Positions 304 through 10,554 of a stretch of 10,826 nt of DNA are shown here, in pieces. Below the pieces are notes generated by a model. The model was given only the letters and a program-made list of their open reading frames with translations. It ran no database searches and was not told the origin of the DNA. Numbering within the stretch: the first letter of the stretch is position 1; each line of letters starts with the position of its first letter. The position numbers were made by a program, and so were the translations under genes. Source of the stretch: a virus. Its lineage: Duplodnaviria; Heunggongvirae; Uroviricota; Caudoviricetes. The stretch is taken from the IMG/VR virus record IMGVR_UViG_3300012983_002979; one strand, written 5' to 3'.

Positions 304-1497
304 GTGGCTCGGACAACACGCCCTCTGAGCAACACCGAAGTTCTACGTGCTAAAGCGCTAGATAAGGATCTAACACTGCATGATGGTGATGGGCTTTTTC
401 TGATAGTGAAAACAAACGGTAAAAAACTCTGGCGCTTTCGCTATCAACGACCAACTACAAAAAAAAGAACAATGATAGGGATAGGTGCTTTCCCAGCTAT
501 CTCACTTGCTGATGCTAGAAGGTTAAGGGCGAATTATCTTGCTTTGTTAGCTAATGGCCTAGATCCACAAGTTCAAGCTGAACTTATCGAAGAACAACAA
601 CAGATAGCCATAGACAGTATTTTTTCGACTGTTGCATTCAATTGGTTCCAGCTAAAAAGCAAAAGCGTTACCCCTGATTACGCTAAGGATATATGGCGCT
701 CTCTGGAAAAGGACATATTCCCAGCTATCGGGGAGCTCCCTGTCCAGCAAATCAAAGCCCGGACTCTAGTCGAAGCCCTTGAGCCAATAAAAGCACGTGG
801 GGCTCTTGAAACTGTACGTCGCCTGATACAGCGGATTAACGAGATTATGATTTATGCCGTAAATACTGGTCTGCTCGATGCAAATCCTGCATCAGGCGTC
901 GGGATGGCCTTTGAAAAACCCAAAAAACAAAATATGCGGACGCTGAGACCTGAAGAACTGCCGGAACTAATGCGTTCTTTAGCTATGTCAAACTTATCCG
1001 TTCCCACTCGCTGTCTTATAGAATGGCAACTTCTGACCCTCGTGCGTCCATCAGAGGCATCTGGTGCTCGGTGGGCTGAGCTCGATCTGGATGCAAAGCT
1101 CTGGGTGATTCCAAGCGAGCGGATGAAGGCTAAGCGAGAACATATTGTTCCTTTGTCTCCTCAAGCCTTAGACATTCTTATGGTGATGAAACCAATAAGT
1201 GGGCATCGGACATATATTTTTCCGAGTCGAAACGATCCCCAAAAAGCAATGAATAGCCAAACAGCAAATGCGGCATTAAAACGTATTGGATATGGACAAA
1301 AATTGGTTGCTCATGGTTTGCGTTCTATTGCAAGTACAGCGATGAATGAGGCAGGTTTTAATTCAGATGTTATTGAAACTGCACTTTCTCATGTTGACAA
1401 AGACGAAGTTCGGCGTGCATATAATCGCGCTTTATATCTCGAGCAACGTAAAGAGCTTTTAAATTGGTGGGGATTATTTGTCATGAACTCTAAATAA
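304..1497 (+). CDS. int: Tyrosine site-specific recombinase, P4-type integrase (397 aa, GTG start)
   Basis: ORF 304..1497 with AAGGAG 8 nt upstream. N-terminus (GDGLFLIVKTNGKKLWRFRY) resembles the arm-binding domain of P4-family integrases; C-terminus has HGLRS...RAYNRALYLEQR consistent with the catalytic His/Arg/Tyr region. Location next to the tmRNA 3' end is typical. Confidence 0.9.
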   Translation: MARTTRPLSNTEVLRAKALDKDLTLHDGDGLFLIVKTNGKKLWRFRYQRPTTKKRTMIGIGAFPAISLADARRLRANYLALLANGLDPQVQAELIEEQQQIAIDSIFSTVAFNWFQLKSKSVTPDYAKDIWRSLEKDIFPAIGELPVQQIKARTLVEALEPIKARGALETVRRLIQRINEIMIYAVNTGLLDANPASGVGMAFEKPKKQNMRTLRPEELPELMRSLAMSNLSVPTRCLIEWQLLTLVRPSEASGARWAELDLDAKLWVIPSERMKAKREHIVPLSPQALDILMVMKPISGHRTYIFPSRNDPQKAMNSQTANAALKRIGYGQKLVAHGLRSIASTAMNEAGFNSDVIETALSHVDKDEVRRAYNRALYLEQRKELLNWWGLFVMNSK

Positions 1498-3213: not shown

Positions 3214-3314
3214 CGCCCGCTTTGCGGGGCGGTTTTAATGCAGTTGCACTGACACGCTCAGACCGCGCCGGGAATGGTGCGGTCTGCAGAAAATGAGGCA
3301 GGAAAACGCATGCA

Positions 3315-3347
3315 AAGCCATGCACCTTATCGATGCATGGCTTTTTT
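3315..3347 (+). terminator. Rho-independent terminator-like hairpin between cos and the psu stop
   Basis: AAGCCATGCA-ccttatcga-TGCATGGCTT followed by TTTTT on the plus strand. On the minus strand (psu sense) the hairpin is not followed by a U-run, so it would mainly stop rightward transcription. Confidence 0.4.
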
Positions 3348-3377
3348 CAGTAAAAACGGGCGGATTTTCGGGGAATT

Positions 3378-3950
3378 TTACACAGACTGATGTGATGCCA
3401 GTTGCGCACTTTTACGCGAAAAAATCATGTTCTGCGCAGGGGTGAATTTTTCACGGCTGTCATCCACCGAAGCCGCGTCAGGCCTGAATCCGATGGTCGT
3501 TAAAATGTCGCTATCCTGTGCGGAATAATTAATTTTTTCACCCTTCGCAAGCCAGGACAGGAGGGCTTCACGCAGGGCATCTGTGGCACGCTGTATGGCA
3601 CAGTTTCGGGCAATGGCCGTCAGCTCACTGTAGCCCATCAGCTCCGGTGCCAGTGCCGCCGCCAGTGCTGTGCCGTGCTGCTGCATAAAATCATTCAGCC
3701 GGTCGCGGATGCTGATGTGCTGAACGGCTTCATGCGAACGAATATAACGACCGGCGGCCTGATTCACCTGCCATTTTCTGACTTCGATAATATTGCGTAA
3801 TTCGTCCAGGCGACTGACGTTTCTGCCTTCTCCTGACTGAAGCCGCAGATATTCCTGTTCGGCCGCTGCCAGCTCATTTTTGCGTTGCAGCCATGCTGCT
3901 TTGTTATTCTGACAGGTGTCAAAGGCCTGCTGTAAGGCTGTGCTTTCCAT
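3378..3950 (-). CDS. psu: Psu, polarity suppression / capsid decoration protein (190 aa)
   Basis: 190-aa ORF beginning MESTALQQAFDTCQNNKAAW, which I recognise as P4 Psu; length and position (last gene of the psu-delta-sid operon, adjacent to cos) match. Confidence 0.9.
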   Translation of the reverse strand: MESTALQQAFDTCQNNKAAWLQRKNELAAAEQEYLRLQSGEGRNVSRLDELRNIIEVRKWQVNQAAGRYIRSHEAVQHISIRDRLNDFMQQHGTALAAALAPELMGYSELTAIARNCAIQRATDALREALLSWLAKGEKINYSAQDSDILTTIGFRPDAASVDDSREKFTPAQNMIFSRKSAQLASHQSV

Positions 3951-4023
3951 CGTTATCTCTTTCTCATCATGCTGAAGAATAAAAATACGGTGTGCGGCGA
4001 CGGCCGGGGTTAACCGGCAGCCC

Positions 4024-4524
4024 TCATTCCAGACGCAGCGAATATGATTGTGTTTTTAACCGTACTGGCGGCAGTTCCTGTTTTTCATGCAGGCGTTCTG
4101 CCAGTTCGTCCGGTGTGACCGGGCGGACAATGAAGCGGTTGATGGTCTGAAGCGTTTTAAACACCAGACCACAGCCCGGATCCGTGCACACATAAAAACG
4201 TTCGGTGACTTCCTGAGACAGACGCCGCGATGTTCTTGACAGTGCAAGGCCTTTACATCTCCGACAACAATATCCGGTAACAAGCATTCTTTTCGGGCGT
4301 TTCATACTGCCGGAGGCAGAAGTCAGTGAATCGCGGTATCTCTGTTTGCCTGAAATGTATTCCATTCCTGAATCTTTACTGTCAGAGAAAAAGCTTTCAC
4401 TCGCTTCAAATGTCGCAGAGCAATAAATATTCCGGCACTGTGCAATCATTATCTTGGTGCCATCGTCCATGAAATGTGCGCGGCGGGTGTGAGCAACATG
4501 TCCACACGACGGGCAGTAAATCAT
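4024..4524 (-). CDS. delta: Delta, late-gene transcription activator with tandem Ogr-like zinc-finger domains (166 aa)
   Basis: Two Cys-rich Ogr-type halves (CPSCGH...CRNIYC and CCRRCKG...CTDPGC). 166 aa as in P4 Delta. Start overlaps the sid stop as ATGA (4521-4524). Confidence 0.9.
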   Translation of the reverse strand: MIYCPSCGHVAHTRRAHFMDDGTKIMIAQCRNIYCSATFEASESFFSDSKDSGMEYISGKQRYRDSLTSASGSMKRPKRMLVTGYCCRRCKGLALSRTSRRLSQEVTERFYVCTDPGCGLVFKTLQTINRFIVRPVTPDELAERLHEKQELPPVRLKTQSYSLRLE

Positions 4525-5255
4525 GACAGCAGTCCTCTGGCCTTAAGCTCTGCACCCTGCTGGTCTATTTTGTCCTGCCACACCTTGCGCTGTGCCGGTG
4601 TGCCTGCCACCTCATAATCCATGTGCGGGAGTGTTGCCGCTGACAGTCCGGTCAGCCGGAGAACCGGCTCGCCGGTGAGGCTGATTTGCATCTGTTTAAT
4701 TTTCTGTTCCAGCGATGATTTCACCTGCTGCATGACAGCTTTATCGGGTGCGACGTAGCCCTGATGGCCGGTGGTGTTGGCGAGCGGATTTTCCTGTACC
4801 AGGATACTCAGATGCATTGCCCGGACAAGCGCCTCACAGGTTTCATTCAGGGCGTGTTCCAGCTCATGCTCTGCATACAGACTCAGAAGGTGATGATGTG
4901 CCTTCCGGTAGGCGGTGGCCGTGCTGTCACACGCCCCTTTCAGGCGTTCACGTTCGAAATTCAGCACCACGGCCAGATTGTCATATTCCTGTACCAGCTC
5001 CCGGCGTGCCACGCGCTCAATGTGGCGCTGTTTCAGCTCGTCGCTCAGGACACCACCGGCTGCACGAAAGGCCGTGCGCCAGTCGTCAGCGTCGTTTCCG
5101 TCGGCCTGCGCCAGCGCATTTTTTTCCTGCTCTGCCCGTTCAATGGCCGTGACGGTCTCATCCATCAGGCGGGCGTTCTCAAGGTGGGCGGCTCTGGCCT
5201 TTTCCAGTTGTGCCAGTGCGGGTTGCAGATATTCAGGGATGGTGTTGTCAGACAT
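4521..5255 (-). CDS. sid: Sid, external scaffold / capsid size determination protein (244 aa from the ATG at 5255)
   Basis: ORF 4521..5273; the ATG at 5255-5253 has GAGGAG 8 nt upstream and gives 244 aa, the P4 Sid length as I recall it. The track's start at 5273 is a GTG. Coiled-coil-like, Ala/Glu/Leu-rich composition. Confidence 0.85.
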   Translation of the reverse strand: MSDNTIPEYLQPALAQLEKARAAHLENARLMDETVTAIERAEQEKNALAQADGNDADDWRTAFRAAGGVLSDELKQRHIERVARRELVQEYDNLAVVLNFERERLKGACDSTATAYRKAHHHLLSLYAEHELEHALNETCEALVRAMHLSILVQENPLANTTGHQGYVAPDKAVMQQVKSSLEQKIKQMQISLTGEPVLRLTGLSAATLPHMDYEVAGTPAQRKVWQDKIDQQGAELKARGLLS

Positions 5256-5289
5256 TTTCCGGCTCCTCGTCACTTCAGGTTAAGAAAAT

Positions 5290-5345
5290 TGTGACGTACA
5301 CCGGACAACAACACGACGCATTGCAGATGTGCCAGCCCTGACACA
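5290..5345 (-). promoter_or_regulatory. Psid-like late promoter: two TGT-N12-ACA dyads (candidate Delta/Ogr binding sites)
   Basis: TGT(5290-5292)-N12-ACA(5305-5307) and TGT(5328-5330)-N12-ACA(5343-5345), centres ~38 bp apart. Relative to a leftward start near 5281 they would sit near -18 and -55. P2/P4 late promoters are activated through TGT-N12-ACA dyads. Confidence 0.45.
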
Positions 5346-5424
5346 GGAGACTCATCCTCAGACCGGCAAGCCAGGAAAAGGTCGCAGGAAAAACCGGCTT
5401 ACTGTTTGTTTTTTTATATTTTAC

Positions 5425-5528
5425 TGTTCACCTCTGTTCATCATAAGAAAAAAGATAAGTAATACAGTAAGTTAAAGGGTGAACAATCGCAGTAATGACT
5501 GTTCACCGTCTGTTCACCACTGTTCACC
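5425..5528. repeat. Iteron cluster of TGTTCACC octamers; ori-like replication origin
   Basis: TGTTCACC at 5425, 5500, 5511, 5521 (the last three ~10-11 bp apart), a variant TGTTCATC at 5436, and an inverted GGTGAACA at 5478. The same octamer recurs in the crr-like repeats after alpha, ~4.9 kb away. P4 alpha binds TGTTCACC iterons in ori and crr. Confidence 0.5.
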
Positions 5529-5807
5529 CGTTGATGGGCTTTTTGTGCTGTTTACTACTGTTTGTTTTTATTAATTTGCCGGGAATGAATAAGAAAAAAC
5601 GATTTGTATTTCACTATAAAAATTACGAATTGCTTTAAGTGGCTTTAAATGACTTTAAGTGGAGATGAACAAAAAACACACAAGCATTGTAAGGCTGCCG
5701 GAACAAATCCCCCCTGTTGCGTCTGCTGAAAATATTCACAAAATAAAGCGCTACCCGAAGCCGGACGGACTTATCCGGTGCTGTATGGACATTAACGAGG
5801 TAGCCCG

Positions 5808-6074
5808 ATGCAAGCTGTTTTTTCTTCCCCGTCTCCCGCCCCTGTGACGCCACTGATGCCGCTGCCGGACATCACGCAGGAGCGTTTTTTACGTCTGCCG
5901 GAAGTGATGCACCTGTGCGGCCTGTCACGCTCGACCATCTATGAACTCATCCGTAAGGGGGAATTTCCGCCGCAGGTGAGTCTTGGCGGTAAAAATGTGG
6001 CCTGGCTGCACTCTGAAGTCACCGCATGGATGGCCGGCCGCATTGCCGGACGCAAACGGGGGTATGACGCATGA
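5808..6074 (+). CDS. vis: Vis/AlpA-family HTH regulator, excision and late-gene control (88 aa)
   Basis: [50 protein letters not shown] matches the AlpA-type HTH pattern. 88 aa from the ATG at 5808 (GAGG 8 nt upstream); an alternative start at 5856 would give ~72 aa. Confidence 0.75.
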
Positions 6075-6108
6075 TGATGCCCGCTCTGCAAAAAGTCCCT
6101 TTTTCTGG

Positions 6109-6138
6109 CTTGCCTTTTTCCGGCATTTGCGGATATAG
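6109..6138 (+). promoter_or_regulatory. Candidate sigma70 promoter (PLE-like) for the immunity/left operon
   Basis: TTGCCT (6109-6114), 18-bp spacer, TATAGT (6133-6138), ~30 bp upstream of the seqA-like element. Pattern match only. Confidence 0.3.
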
Positions 6139-6329
6139 TTTTTCCGCTGTCGCAAAATCGGCAGCCGGGCGTAGGAACCCGTGTAACTCGAAGGCGACAT
6201 ATGACGCGCCATGCGTCTTTTTTTGTGTCGCAATCAACGCCACAGAGCGCCAGATTATGGTGTGGCGTGTGGTTTGCCGTGCAGGTATGATCCTGTTCGC
6301 AATCGCATGTTATGCCACTGAGTCAATGG

Positions 6330-6400
6330 TAGCTCAGGCGGGGCAGCCTCCGGGCTGGCCGGTATTCTTCGAGGCCGGTATTCCTACCCCCGTCTGGGCT
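6330..6400 (+). ncRNA. cI: CI-like immunity RNA region (seqB-like core); boundaries approximate
   Basis: The central segment 6367-6387 (CTTCGAGGCCGGTATTCCTAC) is complementary to the bipartite GTAGGAA...CTCGAAG(G) motifs at 6171-6194 and 6414-6453, as in P4 seqA/seqB/seqC. RNA ends cannot be set from sequence. Confidence 0.35.
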
Positions 6401-6463
6401 ATCGCCATCGAGCGTAGGAACTCCGGCGATAGCAGTTATTTGCTACTCGAAGGAGACTGCCTT

Positions 6464-6661
6464 ATGGCTACAACCCTTACCCCCTCACACCCTGAATTTG
6501 TCTTTGTGTTTGCGGCTGTCCGTCGCGCAGACCGTCATCCCCGTATCTGCATGCTTCGCACCGTCGCCGGTGATGAACGCAGCGCCCGCCGTTCCCTTGT
6601 CCGTGACTATGTGCTCTCCCTTGCTGCCCGTCTGCCGGTGGTGGAGGTGTCCCGTGCGTAA
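6464..6661 (+). CDS. Small protein (65 aa) in the eta-like position; SD overlapped by the seqC-like element
   Basis: ATG at 6464 preceded by AAGGAG (6450-6455). It is in frame with the 196-aa track ORF, whose upstream part spans the cI region and is unlikely to be coding. Stop overlaps the next gene's start region. Confidence 0.45.
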
Positions 6662-6941
6662 TAAAAAAGCCCCTCAGACCGTCTCAGCGCGTCATGACGC
6701 CCGTGAACACCTCAGCATTGAGGCTTACCATAAGCTCAACCGCGCCAGCGCCGTATCCCAGTTTGTTGGGGGTGATTTGATTCACCGTGAACTCTCCGGC
6801 CTGCATCAGCTCTACATTCCGCATATTTTCAGCTACCTGAATGAAGATATTGATTTTGTGCTGAATGAGCTGAAAGCCAAAGGCCTGTGCCGCGATTTTC
6901 TCGCCCAGCAGAAAGACCGGGGAGACAGGACGCATGTTTGA
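6654..6941 (+). CDS. eps: Epsilon-like protein (helper-prophage derepression), 95 aa from the GTG at 6654
   Basis: Frame of track ORF 6498..6941. GTG at 6654 with GGAGG 6 nt upstream gives 95 aa, the length I recall for P4 epsilon; upstream in-frame ATGs lie inside the preceding small gene. Stop overlaps the orf151 start (ATGTTTGA). Start choice is uncertain. Confidence 0.5.
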
Positions 6942-7389
6942 TTTTCCCCAGCCCGGTGAGATTTACCGTTCTGCCGGTTTTCCCGATGTGGCCGTGGTCG
7001 GCATTCTGGAAGACGGTATTCCGTGGGAAATGCCGTACCGCTGCCCGGAAATTGTCTGGAACCCGTACCGCCGTAAATTCAGTATCCTTGTGCGTATCCT
7101 TGGTGACGGGCGCACCACAGACATCCCGCTGGGGCGTTTTCTGCGGGAATTTACCTGTGACTGTCCTGACCTGTTCAGACGCAGCCCCGTAAACCGGCAT
7201 GCGGTACTGAAAGAAATGGCCGGAGACCCGGAATTACAGAAATGGCGGGAGAAATATCTGGATATTTACCCGCAGGACACTGTTCCGGTCAGCCGGGCGG
7301 CACCGGTGGCGCGGGAATGGCGGGAAATCCCCCGCACGGAGCCTGACCCGGAAATCACACCGGATAACAGTTACCGCAATTATCTGTAA
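6934..7389 (+). CDS. Conserved P4-family protein, orf151-like (151 aa)
   Basis: 151-aa ORF with GGAGACAGGA upstream, coupled to the preceding gene. Length and position between epsilon and alpha match P4 orf151. Confidence 0.8.
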   Translation: MFDFPQPGEIYRSAGFPDVAVVGILEDGIPWEMPYRCPEIVWNPYRRKFSILVRILGDGRTTDIPLGRFLREFTCDCPDLFRRSPVNRHAVLKEMAGDPELQKWREKYLDIYPQDTVPVSRAAPVAREWREIPRTEPDPEITPDNSYRNYL

Positions 7390-7524
7390 TTAAAAAACGA
7401 CACCCGAAAAATTAAATGTGCGTATTCGCGCAGGGATACGCACGTCTTCAGGAGACGCAGATATGCCTTATCAGTTAATGCAACCGGCACGGAATGCAGT
7501 CATCTGTCACAGGGAGGAAAGCAA

Positions 7525-7845
7525 ATGAAAACACCCTTACCGCCCGTCTTACGCGCAGCCCTTTACCGTCGCGCTGTCGCCTGTGCCTGGCTGACCGTGT
7601 GCGAACGTCAGCACCGCTACCCGCATCTCACCCTTGAATCACTGGAGGCGGCCATCGCCGCTGAGCTGGAAGGCTTTTATCTGCGCCAGCACGGTGAGGA
7701 AAAAGGGCGTCAGATAGCCTGTGCCCTGCTGGAAGATTTAATGGAATCCGGCCCCCTGAAGGCCGCGCCGTCGCTGTCCTTTCTCGGGCTGGTTGTGATG
7801 GATGAACTCTGTGCCCGTCACATAAAAGCGCCGGTACTGCACTGA
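7525..7845 (+). CDS. Conserved P4-family hypothetical protein, orf106-like (106 aa)
   Basis: 106-aa ORF with GGGAGG upstream, immediately before alpha. Confidence 0.75.
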
Positions 7846-7859
7846 AGGAGAACAACACC

Positions 7860-10193
7860 ATGAAAATGAACGTAACCGCCACCGTCAGCCATGCGCTCGG
7901 CCACTGGCCGCGTATTCTCCCGGCGCTGGGGATTCAGGTGCTGAAAAACCGTCATCAGCCCTGTCCGGTCTGTGGCGGGAGTGACCGCTTCCGTTTTGAT
8001 GACAGGGAGGGGCGCGGCACCTGGTACTGCAATCAGTGTGGTGCCGGTGACGGCCTGAAACTGGTTGAAAAGGTGTTTGGTGTTTCCCCGTCCGACGCGG
8101 CCGCAAAGGTGGCTGCCGTGACCGGCAGCCTGCCACCGGCTGACCCGGCAGTGACGACCGCCGCCGTTGCTGAAACAGACGCTGCCCGGAAGAGCGCCGC
8201 CGCACTGGCACAAACCCTGATGGCGAAAACCCGTCCCGGAACCGGTAACGCCTACCTGACCCGCAAGGGCTTTCCCGGCCGGGAATGCCGGATGCTGACC
8301 GGCACACTCAGAGCCGGTGGCGTGAGCTGGCGTGCCGGTGACCTTGTGGTGCCACTGTATGACGACAGCGGCGAACTGGTTAACCTTCAGTTAATCAGTG
8401 CTGACGGCCGTAAGCGCACCCTGAAAGGCGGACAGGTCAGGGGCACCTGTCACACCCTTGAAGGACAGAATCAGGCCGGAAAACGTCTGTGGATAGCGGA
8501 GGGATACGCGACCGCACTTACCGTACATCACCTGACCGGTGAAACGGTGATGGTGGCGCTTTCTTCCGTGAACCTCCTTTCTCTGGCCAGCCTTGCCCGG
8601 CAGAAGCATCCGGCCTGTCAGATTGTCCTTGCCGCAGACCGTGACCTCAGCGGTGACGGCCAGAAAAAAGCCGCCGCAGCCGCAGATGCGTGTGAAGGTG
8701 TTGTTGCCCTGCCGCCGGTCTTCGGTGACTGGAATGATGCCTTCACGCAGTACGGCGGGGAGGTCACCCGTAAGGCCATTTACGATGCCATCCGGCCACC
8801 GGCTGAAAGCCCGTTCGACACCATGAGCGAAGCAGAGTTTTCCGCCATGAGTACCAGCGAAAAGGCCATGCGTATCTATGAGCATTACGGCGAGGCGCTC
8901 GCGGTCGATGCCAACGGCCAGCTTCTGTCCCGCTATGAAAATGGTGTCTGGAAGGTGCTGCCGCCACAGGACTTTGCCCGGGATGTGGCCGGGCTGTTTC
9001 AGCGTCTGCGCGCGCCGTTCTCCTCCGGGAAGGTGGCCTCCGTGGTGGACACCCTGAAGCTGATTATTCCGCAGCAGGAAGCCCCCTCCCGCCGCCTGAT
9101 TGGCTTTCGTAACGGTGTGCTCGACACGCAGAACGGCACGTTCCACCCGCACAGTCCGTCACACTGGATGCGCACCCTGTGCGATGTGGATTTCACCCCG
9201 CCGGTGGACGGTGAAACGCTGGAAACCCACGCCCCCGCGTTCTGGCGCTGGCTTGACCGTGCCGCCGGTGGCCGTGCGGAAAAACGCGACGTGATTCTGG
9301 CCGCACTGTTTATGGTGCTGGCAAACCGCTACGACTGGCAGCTCTTTCTGGAGGTGACCGGTCCCGGCGGCAGCGGCAAAAGTATCATGGCCGAAATAGC
9401 CACCCTGCTGGCCGGGGAGGATAACGCCACGTCGGCCACCATCGAGACGCTGGAATCCCCGCGTGAACGTGCCGCGTTAACTGGCTTCTCACTGATACGC
9501 CTGCCGGACCAGGAAAAATGGAGCGGCGACGGTGCCGGACTCAAGGCCATCACCGGCGGCGATGCGGTGTCCGTGGACCCGAAATACCGGGATGCGTACT
9601 CCACGCATATCCCGGCGGTGATTCTGGCCGTGAACAATAACCCGATGCGCTTCACCGACCGCAGCGGCGGCGTGTCACGCCGGCGGGTGATTATTCACTT
9701 CCCGGAACAGATAGCCCCGCAGGAGCGCGACCCGCAGCTTAAGGACAAAATCACCCGCGAGCTGGCGGTCATCGTGCGTCACCTGATGCAGAAATTCAGC
9801 GACCCGATGCTCGCCCGGTCACTGCTTCAGTCCCAGCAGAACTCAGACGAGGCACTGAACATCAAACGGGATGCCGACCCGACGTTTGATTTTATCGGCT
9901 ATCTGGAAACCCTGCCGCAGACCAGCGGCATGTATATGGGGAACGCCAGTATCATCCCGCGTAATTACCGTAAATACCTCTATCACGCCTATCTGGCCTA
10001 CATGGAGGCAAACGGCTACCGGAATGTACTCAGTCTGAAAATGTTCGGGCTGGGGCTGCCGGTGATGCTGAAGGAATACGGACTGAATTACGAGAAGCGC
10101 CATACCAAACAGGGGATACAGACCAACCTGACGCTGAAAGAGGAAAGCTACGGCGACTGGCTGCCAAAATGTGACGACCCTGCAACAACCTGA
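7860..10193 (+). CDS. alpha: Alpha: bifunctional primase-helicase replication protein (777 aa)
   Basis: N-terminal zinc-binding primase motif (CPVCGGSDRFRFDD...WYCNQCG), TOPRIM-like region (LWIAEGYATALT...LAADRD), Walker A (VTGPGGSGKS) in a D5-like helicase domain. 777 aa as in P4 alpha. Confidence 0.95.
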   Translation: MKMNVTATVSHALGHWPRILPALGIQVLKNRHQPCPVCGGSDRFRFDDREGRGTWYCNQCGAGDGLKLVEKVFGVSPSDAAAKVAAVTGSLPPADPAVTTAAVAETDAARKSAAALAQTLMAKTRPGTGNAYLTRKGFPGRECRMLTGTLRAGGVSWRAGDLVVPLYDDSGELVNLQLISADGRKRTLKGGQVRGTCHTLEGQNQAGKRLWIAEGYATALTVHHLTGETVMVALSSVNLLSLASLARQKHPACQIVLAADRDLSGDGQKKAAAAADACEGVVALPPVFGDWNDAFTQYGGEVTRKAIYDAIRPPAESPFDTMSEAEFSAMSTSEKAMRIYEHYGEALAVDANGQLLSRYENGVWKVLPPQDFARDVAGLFQRLRAPFSSGKVASVVDTLKLIIPQQEAPSRRLIGFRNGVLDTQNGTFHPHSPSHWMRTLCDVDFTPPVDGETLETHAPAFWRWLDRAAGGRAEKRDVILAALFMVLANRYDWQLFLEVTGPGGSGKSIMAEIATLLAGEDNATSATIETLESPRERAALTGFSLIRLPDQEKWSGDGAGLKAITGGDAVSVDPKYRDAYSTHIPAVILAVNNNPMRFTDRSGGVSRRRVIIHFPEQIAPQERDPQLKDKITRELAVIVRHLMQKFSDPMLARSLLQSQQNSDEALNIKRDADPTFDFIGYLETLPQTSGMYMGNASIIPRNYRKYLYHAYLAYMEANGYRNVLSLKMFGLGLPVMLKEYGLNYEKRHTKQGIQTNLTLKEESYGDWLPKCDDPATT

Positions 10194-10209
10194 CCATCAT
10201 GACTCATCT

Positions 10210-10234
10210 GACCGGCATCTGCCGGTCTTTTTTT
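10210..10234 (+). terminator. Rho-independent terminator after alpha
   Basis: GACCGGCA-tc-TGCCGGTC followed by TTTTTTT, 17 nt after the alpha stop. Confidence 0.6.
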
Positions 10235-10252
10235 ATCCCTGAATTCCCCGAA

Positions 10253-10554
10253 GGTGAACAATCCACTGTTCACCCTTCACCGTATATTCACCCGTTATCA
10301 CACTGAAATTAAAAGAGAAAAACGAAAGGTGAACAGTGTGAACAATCAAATCAAAAAAAACTTTTTTCTCCCTGTGTGATTTTCAGTACGGGGGATTAAT
10401 CACCGGTATGAGTCACACCGGCAGAATGCCGGAGGTGAAGAATCGAATGTTCACCCTTCACCCATTATTCACCACCTATCCAACTGAAATAAAAGGAGAA
10501 AACAGAAAGGTGAACAGTGTGAACAGTTCTTTCGAAAAAAAATTTTTTTCCTGT
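10253..10554. repeat. crr-like cis replication region: two ~120-bp direct repeats (10253-10375 and 10433-10554) separated by ~57 bp, each with TGTTCACC/GGTGAACA iterons
   Basis: The two units align along their length (GGTGAACAATCCACTGTTCACCCTTCACC...GAAAGGTGAACAGTGTGAACA...CCTGT versus GGTGAAGAATCGAATGTTCACCCTTCACC...GAAAGGTGAACAGTGTGAACA...CCTGT). P4 crr is two 120-bp direct repeats ~60 bp apart carrying the alpha-binding octamer. Confidence 0.6.

Follow-up and report, generated by a model that had tools for sequence, protein, structure and literature searches.

The window, by which we mean the whole 10,826-nucleotide stretch of DNA analysed here, begins with the 3' part of tmRNA (positions 1-120; ssrA, RF00023), followed by a tyrosine integrase that is not common to this element and reference P4. 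From the partial tmRNA and the distinct integrase we infer that the element is a P4-type satellite prophage integrated at ssrA rather than at P4's site. Two overlapping ORFs lie between the integrase and the P4-like part of the window. They have a GC content of 33.6%, compared with 55% elsewhere, gave no match in Pfam or PADLOC and no homology to P4, and are uncharacterised cargo at a position where P4-like elements usually carry defence genes. We compared the remainder with the P4 reference records X51522, NC_001609 and X02534. Window 3214-10548 corresponds to P4 4291-11624 at 97.8% identity, and the region around the stretch of interest (5150-5900) is 97.9% identical to satellite phage P4. 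The features discussed below are collected in Table 1.

Table 1. Positions in the window of the genes, control elements and RNAs around the sid promoter.
Feature	Position	Strand	Basis or remark
Tyrosine integrase	304-1497	+	not common to reference P4
Two overlapping ORFs, 230 and 299 aa	1530-3088	-	between integrase and P4-like part
psu, 190 aa	3378-3950	-	last gene of sid-delta-psu; Pfam PF07455, E = 4.3e-88
delta, 166 aa	4024-4524	-	two Ogr/Delta zinc-finger domains; Pfam PF04606, two stretches, E = 6.9e-22
sid, 244 aa	4521-5255	-	capsid size-determination scaffold, first late-operon gene; translation, P4 annotation, homologues
sid Shine-Dalgarno, GAGGAG	5263-5268	-	read from sequence
Psid transcription start	5280-5281	-	predicted from the -10; A, 7 nt downstream of the -10
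-10 hexamer, CACAAT	5288-5293	-	sole -10-like element; CA.AAT invariant in family
Proximal dyad	5290-5307	-	TGTCCGGTGTACGTCACA on sid strand; -26..-9, centre -17.5; overlaps -10 hexamer
Distal dyad	5328-5345	-	TGTGTCAGGGCTGGCACA on sid strand; -64..-47, centre -55.5 from the predicted start
P4 ori type-1 repeats	~5425-5530		CTGTTCAC units, direct and inverted; annotated in X51522
Separate exact dyad	5688-5705	+	TGTAAGGCTGCCGGAACA; ~55 bp upstream of expected PLL start (~5752)
vis/orf88	5808-6074	+	AlpA family; gene of rightward late promoter PLL
isrK	6146-6223		Rfam match; P4 immunity region
C4 antisense RNA	6322-6409		Rfam match; P4 immunity region; alpha then follows

The start codon of sid is an ATG at 5255 on the minus strand, and the stretch upstream of this leftward gene is non-coding. 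A motif scan of the window found two exact matches to TGT-N12-ACA there, one at 5290-5307 (TGTGACGTACACCGGACA) and a second at 5328-5345 (TGTGCCAGCCCTGACACA), with a start-to-start distance of 38 bp. The scan thereby bears out the pair of exact dyads that the first-pass annotation had described upstream of sid from the letters alone. Exact TGT-N12-ACA sites occur nine times in the whole window, compared with 2.4 expected, and as many were reached in none of 200 shuffles and in 5 of 5000 in a larger run. A pair no more than 60 bp apart arose in 191 of 5000 dinucleotide shuffles (3.8%). The pair by itself is therefore only modestly improbable, and composition alone is not compelling; its weight rests on its position and its conservation.

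Besides the pair upstream of sid and the separate dyad listed in Table 1, further exact sites start at 813, 2005, 2853, 6182, 7385 and 10170. The site at 6182-6199 lies inside the isrK-like leader RNA, directly before its terminator, and that at 7385 overlaps the stop codon of orf151. The site at 10170 (TGTGACGACCCTGCAACA) is at the end of alpha and has TGTGACG in common with the proximal of the two dyads upstream of sid.

On the sid strand the order of elements is TGTGTCAGGGCTGGCACA-N20-TGTCCGGTGTACGTCACAAT. Taking CACAAT as -12 to -7 places the start at the A at 5281 (5280 is also an A) and the centres of the two dyads at -55.5 and -17.5. From this start it is ~26 nt to the sid ATG and ~13 nt to the Shine-Dalgarno sequence, so the ~25 nt separation from the Shine-Dalgarno proposed earlier was off. 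The -35 position reads TCGTGT, with no consensus -35, and a sigma-70 scan of 5150-6100 found no consensus promoter on either strand, consistent with what is expected of an activator-dependent promoter.

Late promoters of the Ogr/Delta type combine a repeat at about -55 from the start, a -10 without a consensus -35, a cognate zinc-finger activator and a place at the front of a morphogenesis operon. Here the distal dyad is at that distance from the start predicted from the -10, CACAAT (5293-5288) stands without a consensus -35, delta (4024-4524) encodes the activator, and the elements are immediately upstream of sid-delta-psu.

The same region can be compared directly with the reference promoter. 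Over window 5247-5420 every base agrees with P4 (100% identity) in both X51522 and X02534, and this block takes in both dyads, the -10, the Shine-Dalgarno sequence and the start of sid. A 191-column alignment with P4 contained two substitutions, both within the sid coding sequence, and was otherwise identical. X02534 places the sid start and Shine-Dalgarno at equivalent positions, its potential Shine-Dalgarno mapping to window 5264-5266. Given the complete identity of 5247-5420, the locus is P4 Psid inside a P4-type prophage. We thus consider it very probable that the 56-bp stretch is the Psid control region of satellite phage P4, which drives sid-delta-psu leftward, with the -55 dyad activating and the -18 dyad a second Delta site that activation does not need. 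The leftward late promoter with dyads near -55 and -18 that had been suggested earlier accordingly stands, on the strength of the identity to P4, the conserved distal dyad at a fixed distance from the -10 and the geometry of P2 promoters; use of the -18 site for activation is unlikely.

Since Psid is a textbook promoter and the sequence is the same as the reference, the dyad pair is, judged by its sequence, already known: a correct but ordinary identification of the long-studied P4 Psid late promoter. Reportedly, Dale et al. mapped the Psid start in 1986. Julien and Calendar are said to have found in 1995 that MBP-Delta footprints the -55 site of each of the six P2/P4 late promoters and, in Psid, the -18 site as well, and that activation can do without the latter.

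Late transcription starts and activator-binding sites are also marked in the P2 GenBank record, and these provide a second point of reference for the geometry. The PO/PP site of P2 reads TGT-N12-CCA and is centred at -55.5 from the annotated PO start, and PF and PV have their sites at about -57, as a TGT-N12-CCA and a TGT...ACA repeat, respectively. A single activator site is common to the divergent PP and PO starts, which are 111 bp apart. Ogr occupies inverted repeats whose centres lie at about -55, and it depends on contact with the alpha subunit of RNA polymerase (PMC3152322, which also cites a mutational analysis of P4 Psid). TGT-N12-ACA is given as the late-promoter consensus in PMC3931495, which credits Julien & Calendar 1995.

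To ask how general this arrangement is, we collected loci from an alignment of Sid homologues, comprising 23 genomic and 80 viral-contig loci. Among the genomic loci, 22 had a Sid 51-66% identical and one (L003) was P4-type; their hosts include Mangrovibacter, Scandinavium, Enterobacter, Citrobacter, Kluyvera, Tatumella, Klebsiella, Raoultella, Buttiauxella and Atlantibacter. The viral-contig loci were 74 P4-type and 6 diverged. An exact TGT-N12-ACA forms the distal dyad in each of the 28 diverged loci having upstream DNA and in 76 of 76 P4-type copies, with TGTGyCA-N4-TGCCACA as its extended consensus in the family. Family promoters align without gaps from the distal dyad to the CA.AAT hexamer, which is invariant, and at constant spacing from that dyad, in 23 distinct family sequences. 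This conservation is strong evidence for selection on the distal dyad and on its spacing from the -10.

The proximal element behaves differently. It is an exact dyad in 76/76 P4-type copies, but each of the 22 distinct diverged sequences has TGT-N12-AGA, owing to a -10 that reads CAGAAT rather than CACAAT. Every one of the 23 distinct family promoters, with or without an exact proximal dyad, keeps an unchanged TGTTGT block (5305-5310 in the window; -29 to -24 on the sid strand), which overlaps the proximal TGT. This block might serve as a Delta half-site or be contacted by polymerase. Its invariance even without an exact dyad means that the TGT at -18 may be conserved for another cause, such as contact with RNA polymerase. 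Within the P4 type, the 12 TGT/ACA positions of the two dyads showed no variants in 45 distinct sequences, where only ~1.5 were expected (38 of 310 columns being variable).

Two further differences were seen in these alignments. On the sid strand, 5-20 nt before the distal dyad, most diverged relatives (L004-L024) carry GCCGGGTTTT, which resembles an intrinsic terminator tail reading toward sid; P4 has GCCGGTCTGAGG at this place. One P4-type locus (L107:1676-1775), in an assembly rich in frameshifts, lacks 3 bp between the dyads, which are thus 35 rather than 38 bp apart; this is probably an assembly error.

Taken together, these comparisons suggest the following mechanism. Psid would be silent alone, having a usable -10 (CACAAT) and no real -35. 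Late in infection, P4 Delta or helper Ogr would bind the distal dyad at 5328-5345, and the bound activator would recruit RNA polymerase through the alpha C-terminal domain to start transcription at ~5281. The proximal dyad at 5290-5307 would be a second Delta site, separately occupied, lying over the -10 and spacer and unneeded for activation. Delta bound there would most likely damp or cap expression after Delta accumulates. The -18 dyad extends from -26 to -9, over the spacer and half of the -10, so a protein bound to it should compete with polymerase. Because the dyad is exact only in the P4 clade and overlaps the core promoter, an activating role appears unlikely from the sequence comparison. 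Its overlap with the core promoter indicates that it is probably modulatory or inhibitory instead. As delta is itself transcribed from Psid, a ceiling or negative feedback would be the simplest reading of the site.

The distribution of Delta forms bears on how such feedback could have arisen. A single-domain Delta of 67-87 aa directly follows sid in 28 of 28 diverged elements (L004-L025 and L101-L106). P4-type elements encode the 166-aa tandem Delta, and among the satellites compared the tandem form occurs in the P4 clade only. An HMMER scan of 1.84 billion representative proteins returned no other two-domain Delta, and a word-index search returned no tandem Delta below 83% identity. Three lineages that seemed intermediate (P0069, P0083 and P0099, with Sid/Delta matches of 77-85%) proved to be P4-type elements in frameshifted or noisy assemblies with the same promoter. 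One and the same clade is marked by the tandem Delta and by exact dyads both at -18 and ahead of PLL. This distribution is suggestive of co-evolution between the tandem Delta and the exact dyads, but a shared clade represents one evolutionary event, so the co-occurrence carries no statistical weight. One speculative possibility, to which we would give only limited credence, is that the P4 clade acquired the exact -18 dyad through a single G-to-C substitution in the -10, together with the duplication and fusion that turned Delta into a covalent two-domain protein, and thereby gained a Delta-operated negative feedback or ceiling on sid-delta-psu. If so, satellites with a single-domain Delta would be without such feedback.

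Conversely, only the distal dyad might be functional. The proximal dyad would then consist of the conserved TGT (-26 to -24) and an ACA produced by a neutral G-to-C change at the third -10 position, with no regulatory effect. We regard this as unlikely but worth serious weight. The TGT-N12-AGA form in 22/22 distinct diverged promoters, which confines the exact proximal dyad to the P4 clade, speaks for such a by-product, and the G-to-C change does not alter the match to TATAAT. The reported dispensability of the -18 site for activation points the same way, as does the 3.8% of shuffles with a pair within 60 bp, which is not very rare. However, the proximal dyad is intact in 76/76 P4-type copies while nearby positions vary, an observation of low power given the ~1.5 variants expected. 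In addition, Delta reportedly leaves a footprint at -18, and P2 sites with five of six matches are functional, so the TGT-N12-AGA of the relatives may bind as well. We retain the reading in which the -18 dyad is a second Delta site.

The first-pass annotation had also suggested that a tandem-zinc-finger Delta could occupy both dyads. In its strongest form, one such molecule would sit on both, with one Ogr-like domain on each, which we consider very improbable. Delta does have two Ogr_Delta domains, and the tandem form and the second exact dyad co-occur in one clade and only there. Nevertheless, this co-occurrence is one evolutionary event without independent replicates, and the geometry is unfavorable. 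The dyad centres are 38 bp apart, which corresponds to ~129 A (38 bp x 3.4 A) and 3.62 turns, leaving them ~223 degrees out of phase on roughly opposite faces of the helix, and a single 166-aa Delta over both dyads is therefore implausible. Moreover, each dyad is two-fold symmetric and fits one two-domain Delta or one Ogr dimer, and a single dyad mediates activation at PLL and at each of the four P2 promoters. Occupancy of both dyads is thus sensible with separate molecules on each, as in the reading we prefer, and not with one molecule spanning the pair.

A rightward promoter served by the pair, in addition to or instead of Psid, was likewise raised earlier. Its mirror geometry would place a start at ~5354, with 5290-5307 at -55 and 5328-5345 at -18, or at ~5392, with the distal dyad at -55. 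The dyads are palindromic and hence neutral as to orientation, P2 offers a precedent in the single site shared by PP and PO, and a 5' untranslated region is entered from window 5397 in the old X02534 record. Yet the positions required for a -10 read CACAGG (5342-5347) and GGTCGC (5380-5385), in which the conserved A and T are missing, and on the + strand the sigma-70 scan picked up nothing resembling a promoter ahead of PLE. Relatives show little conservation on that side of the distal dyad. Downstream, only the P4 ori repeats precede the next ORF, vis at 5808, which is equipped with a dyad of its own (5688-5705), placed for PLL ~400 bp further on. With no -10-like hexamer, sigma-70 hit, conservation or gene to serve before PLL, the rightward alternative is unsupported and we hold it to be highly doubtful. 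The inverted CTGTTCAC pair at 5478-5507 within the ori repeats was picked up as a terminator-like hairpin by a simple scan.

Least credible of all, and close to negligible in our estimation, is that the dyads are sites for the cAMP receptor protein (CRP): the distal TGTGC-N6-TGACA has 8 of 10 matches to TGTGA-N6-TCACA and the proximal element begins TGTGA, but the proximal right half (CCGGA) is not CRP-like, and the family keeps the N12 spacing with TGTGyCA...TGCCACA rather than a CRP N6 core, relatives reading TGTGC-CATTTT-TGCCA. As the TGTGA-N6-TCACA core is not retained among relatives, we rejected membership of the dyads among CRP sites and return to Psid as a Delta/Ogr-dependent promoter.

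On the rightward side, the start of PLE at 6146 is fixed by the isrK match, and a PLE promoter hit at 6110-6139 predicts the same start. PLL lies ~400 nt upstream of PLE. Judged against the regions preceding vis in L004-L025, the exact N12 dyad in front of PLL is confined to the P4 clade. In most relatives its place is taken by another inverted repeat, for example TGTTGTGTGGTGGGCCACTACA, whose spacing differs. The relatives keep their -10 (CACAAAAT) and a TTGTTGCC block. P2 Cox is a further regulator of PLL (PMC3936717).

Few parts of the P2-P4 helper-satellite system have been studied for as long as Psid and its Delta/Ogr dyads, and their presence here has little weight as a discovery. Their value lies in anchoring the annotation of the prophage, namely its late operon, promoter and predicted start, and in showing that what had been deduced from the sequence without further information proved accurate. 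The modestly new element is the family comparison only: the -55 dyad is universal, and the -18 dyad and tandem Delta belong to the P4 clade only.

When placed in the context of known systems, the closest match is P4 Psid itself, from which nothing in the promoter differs and which heads the same sid-delta-psu operon. The difference from reference P4 is outside 3214-10548, where P4 has its int, cII, beta and gop end and this element has an ssrA-linked integrase and a low-GC two-gene cargo. P4 PLL lies in the same genetic element and has the same activator as Psid, with an exact TGT-N12-ACA ~55 bp upstream of the expected start. However, it is rightward, drives vis and the replication and immunity operon, and has no exact dyad over its core promoter, unlike Psid.

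The P2 promoters PP, PO, PV and PF resemble Psid in having an activator inverted repeat at about -55, a weak core promoter and an activator of the Ogr/Delta family. Their sites are single, imperfect in PO/PP and PF, and none is accompanied by a second site over the core promoter, in contrast to Psid. One site serves the two divergent starts of PP and PO, an arrangement that Psid apparently lacks. Finally, diverged P4-like satellites of Klebsiella, Enterobacter, Citrobacter, Raoultella, Mangrovibacter and others have the same ungapped series of distal dyad, TGTTGT, CA.AAT, Shine-Dalgarno and sid, but differ from the P4 clade in their proximal TGT-N12-AGA and single-domain Delta.
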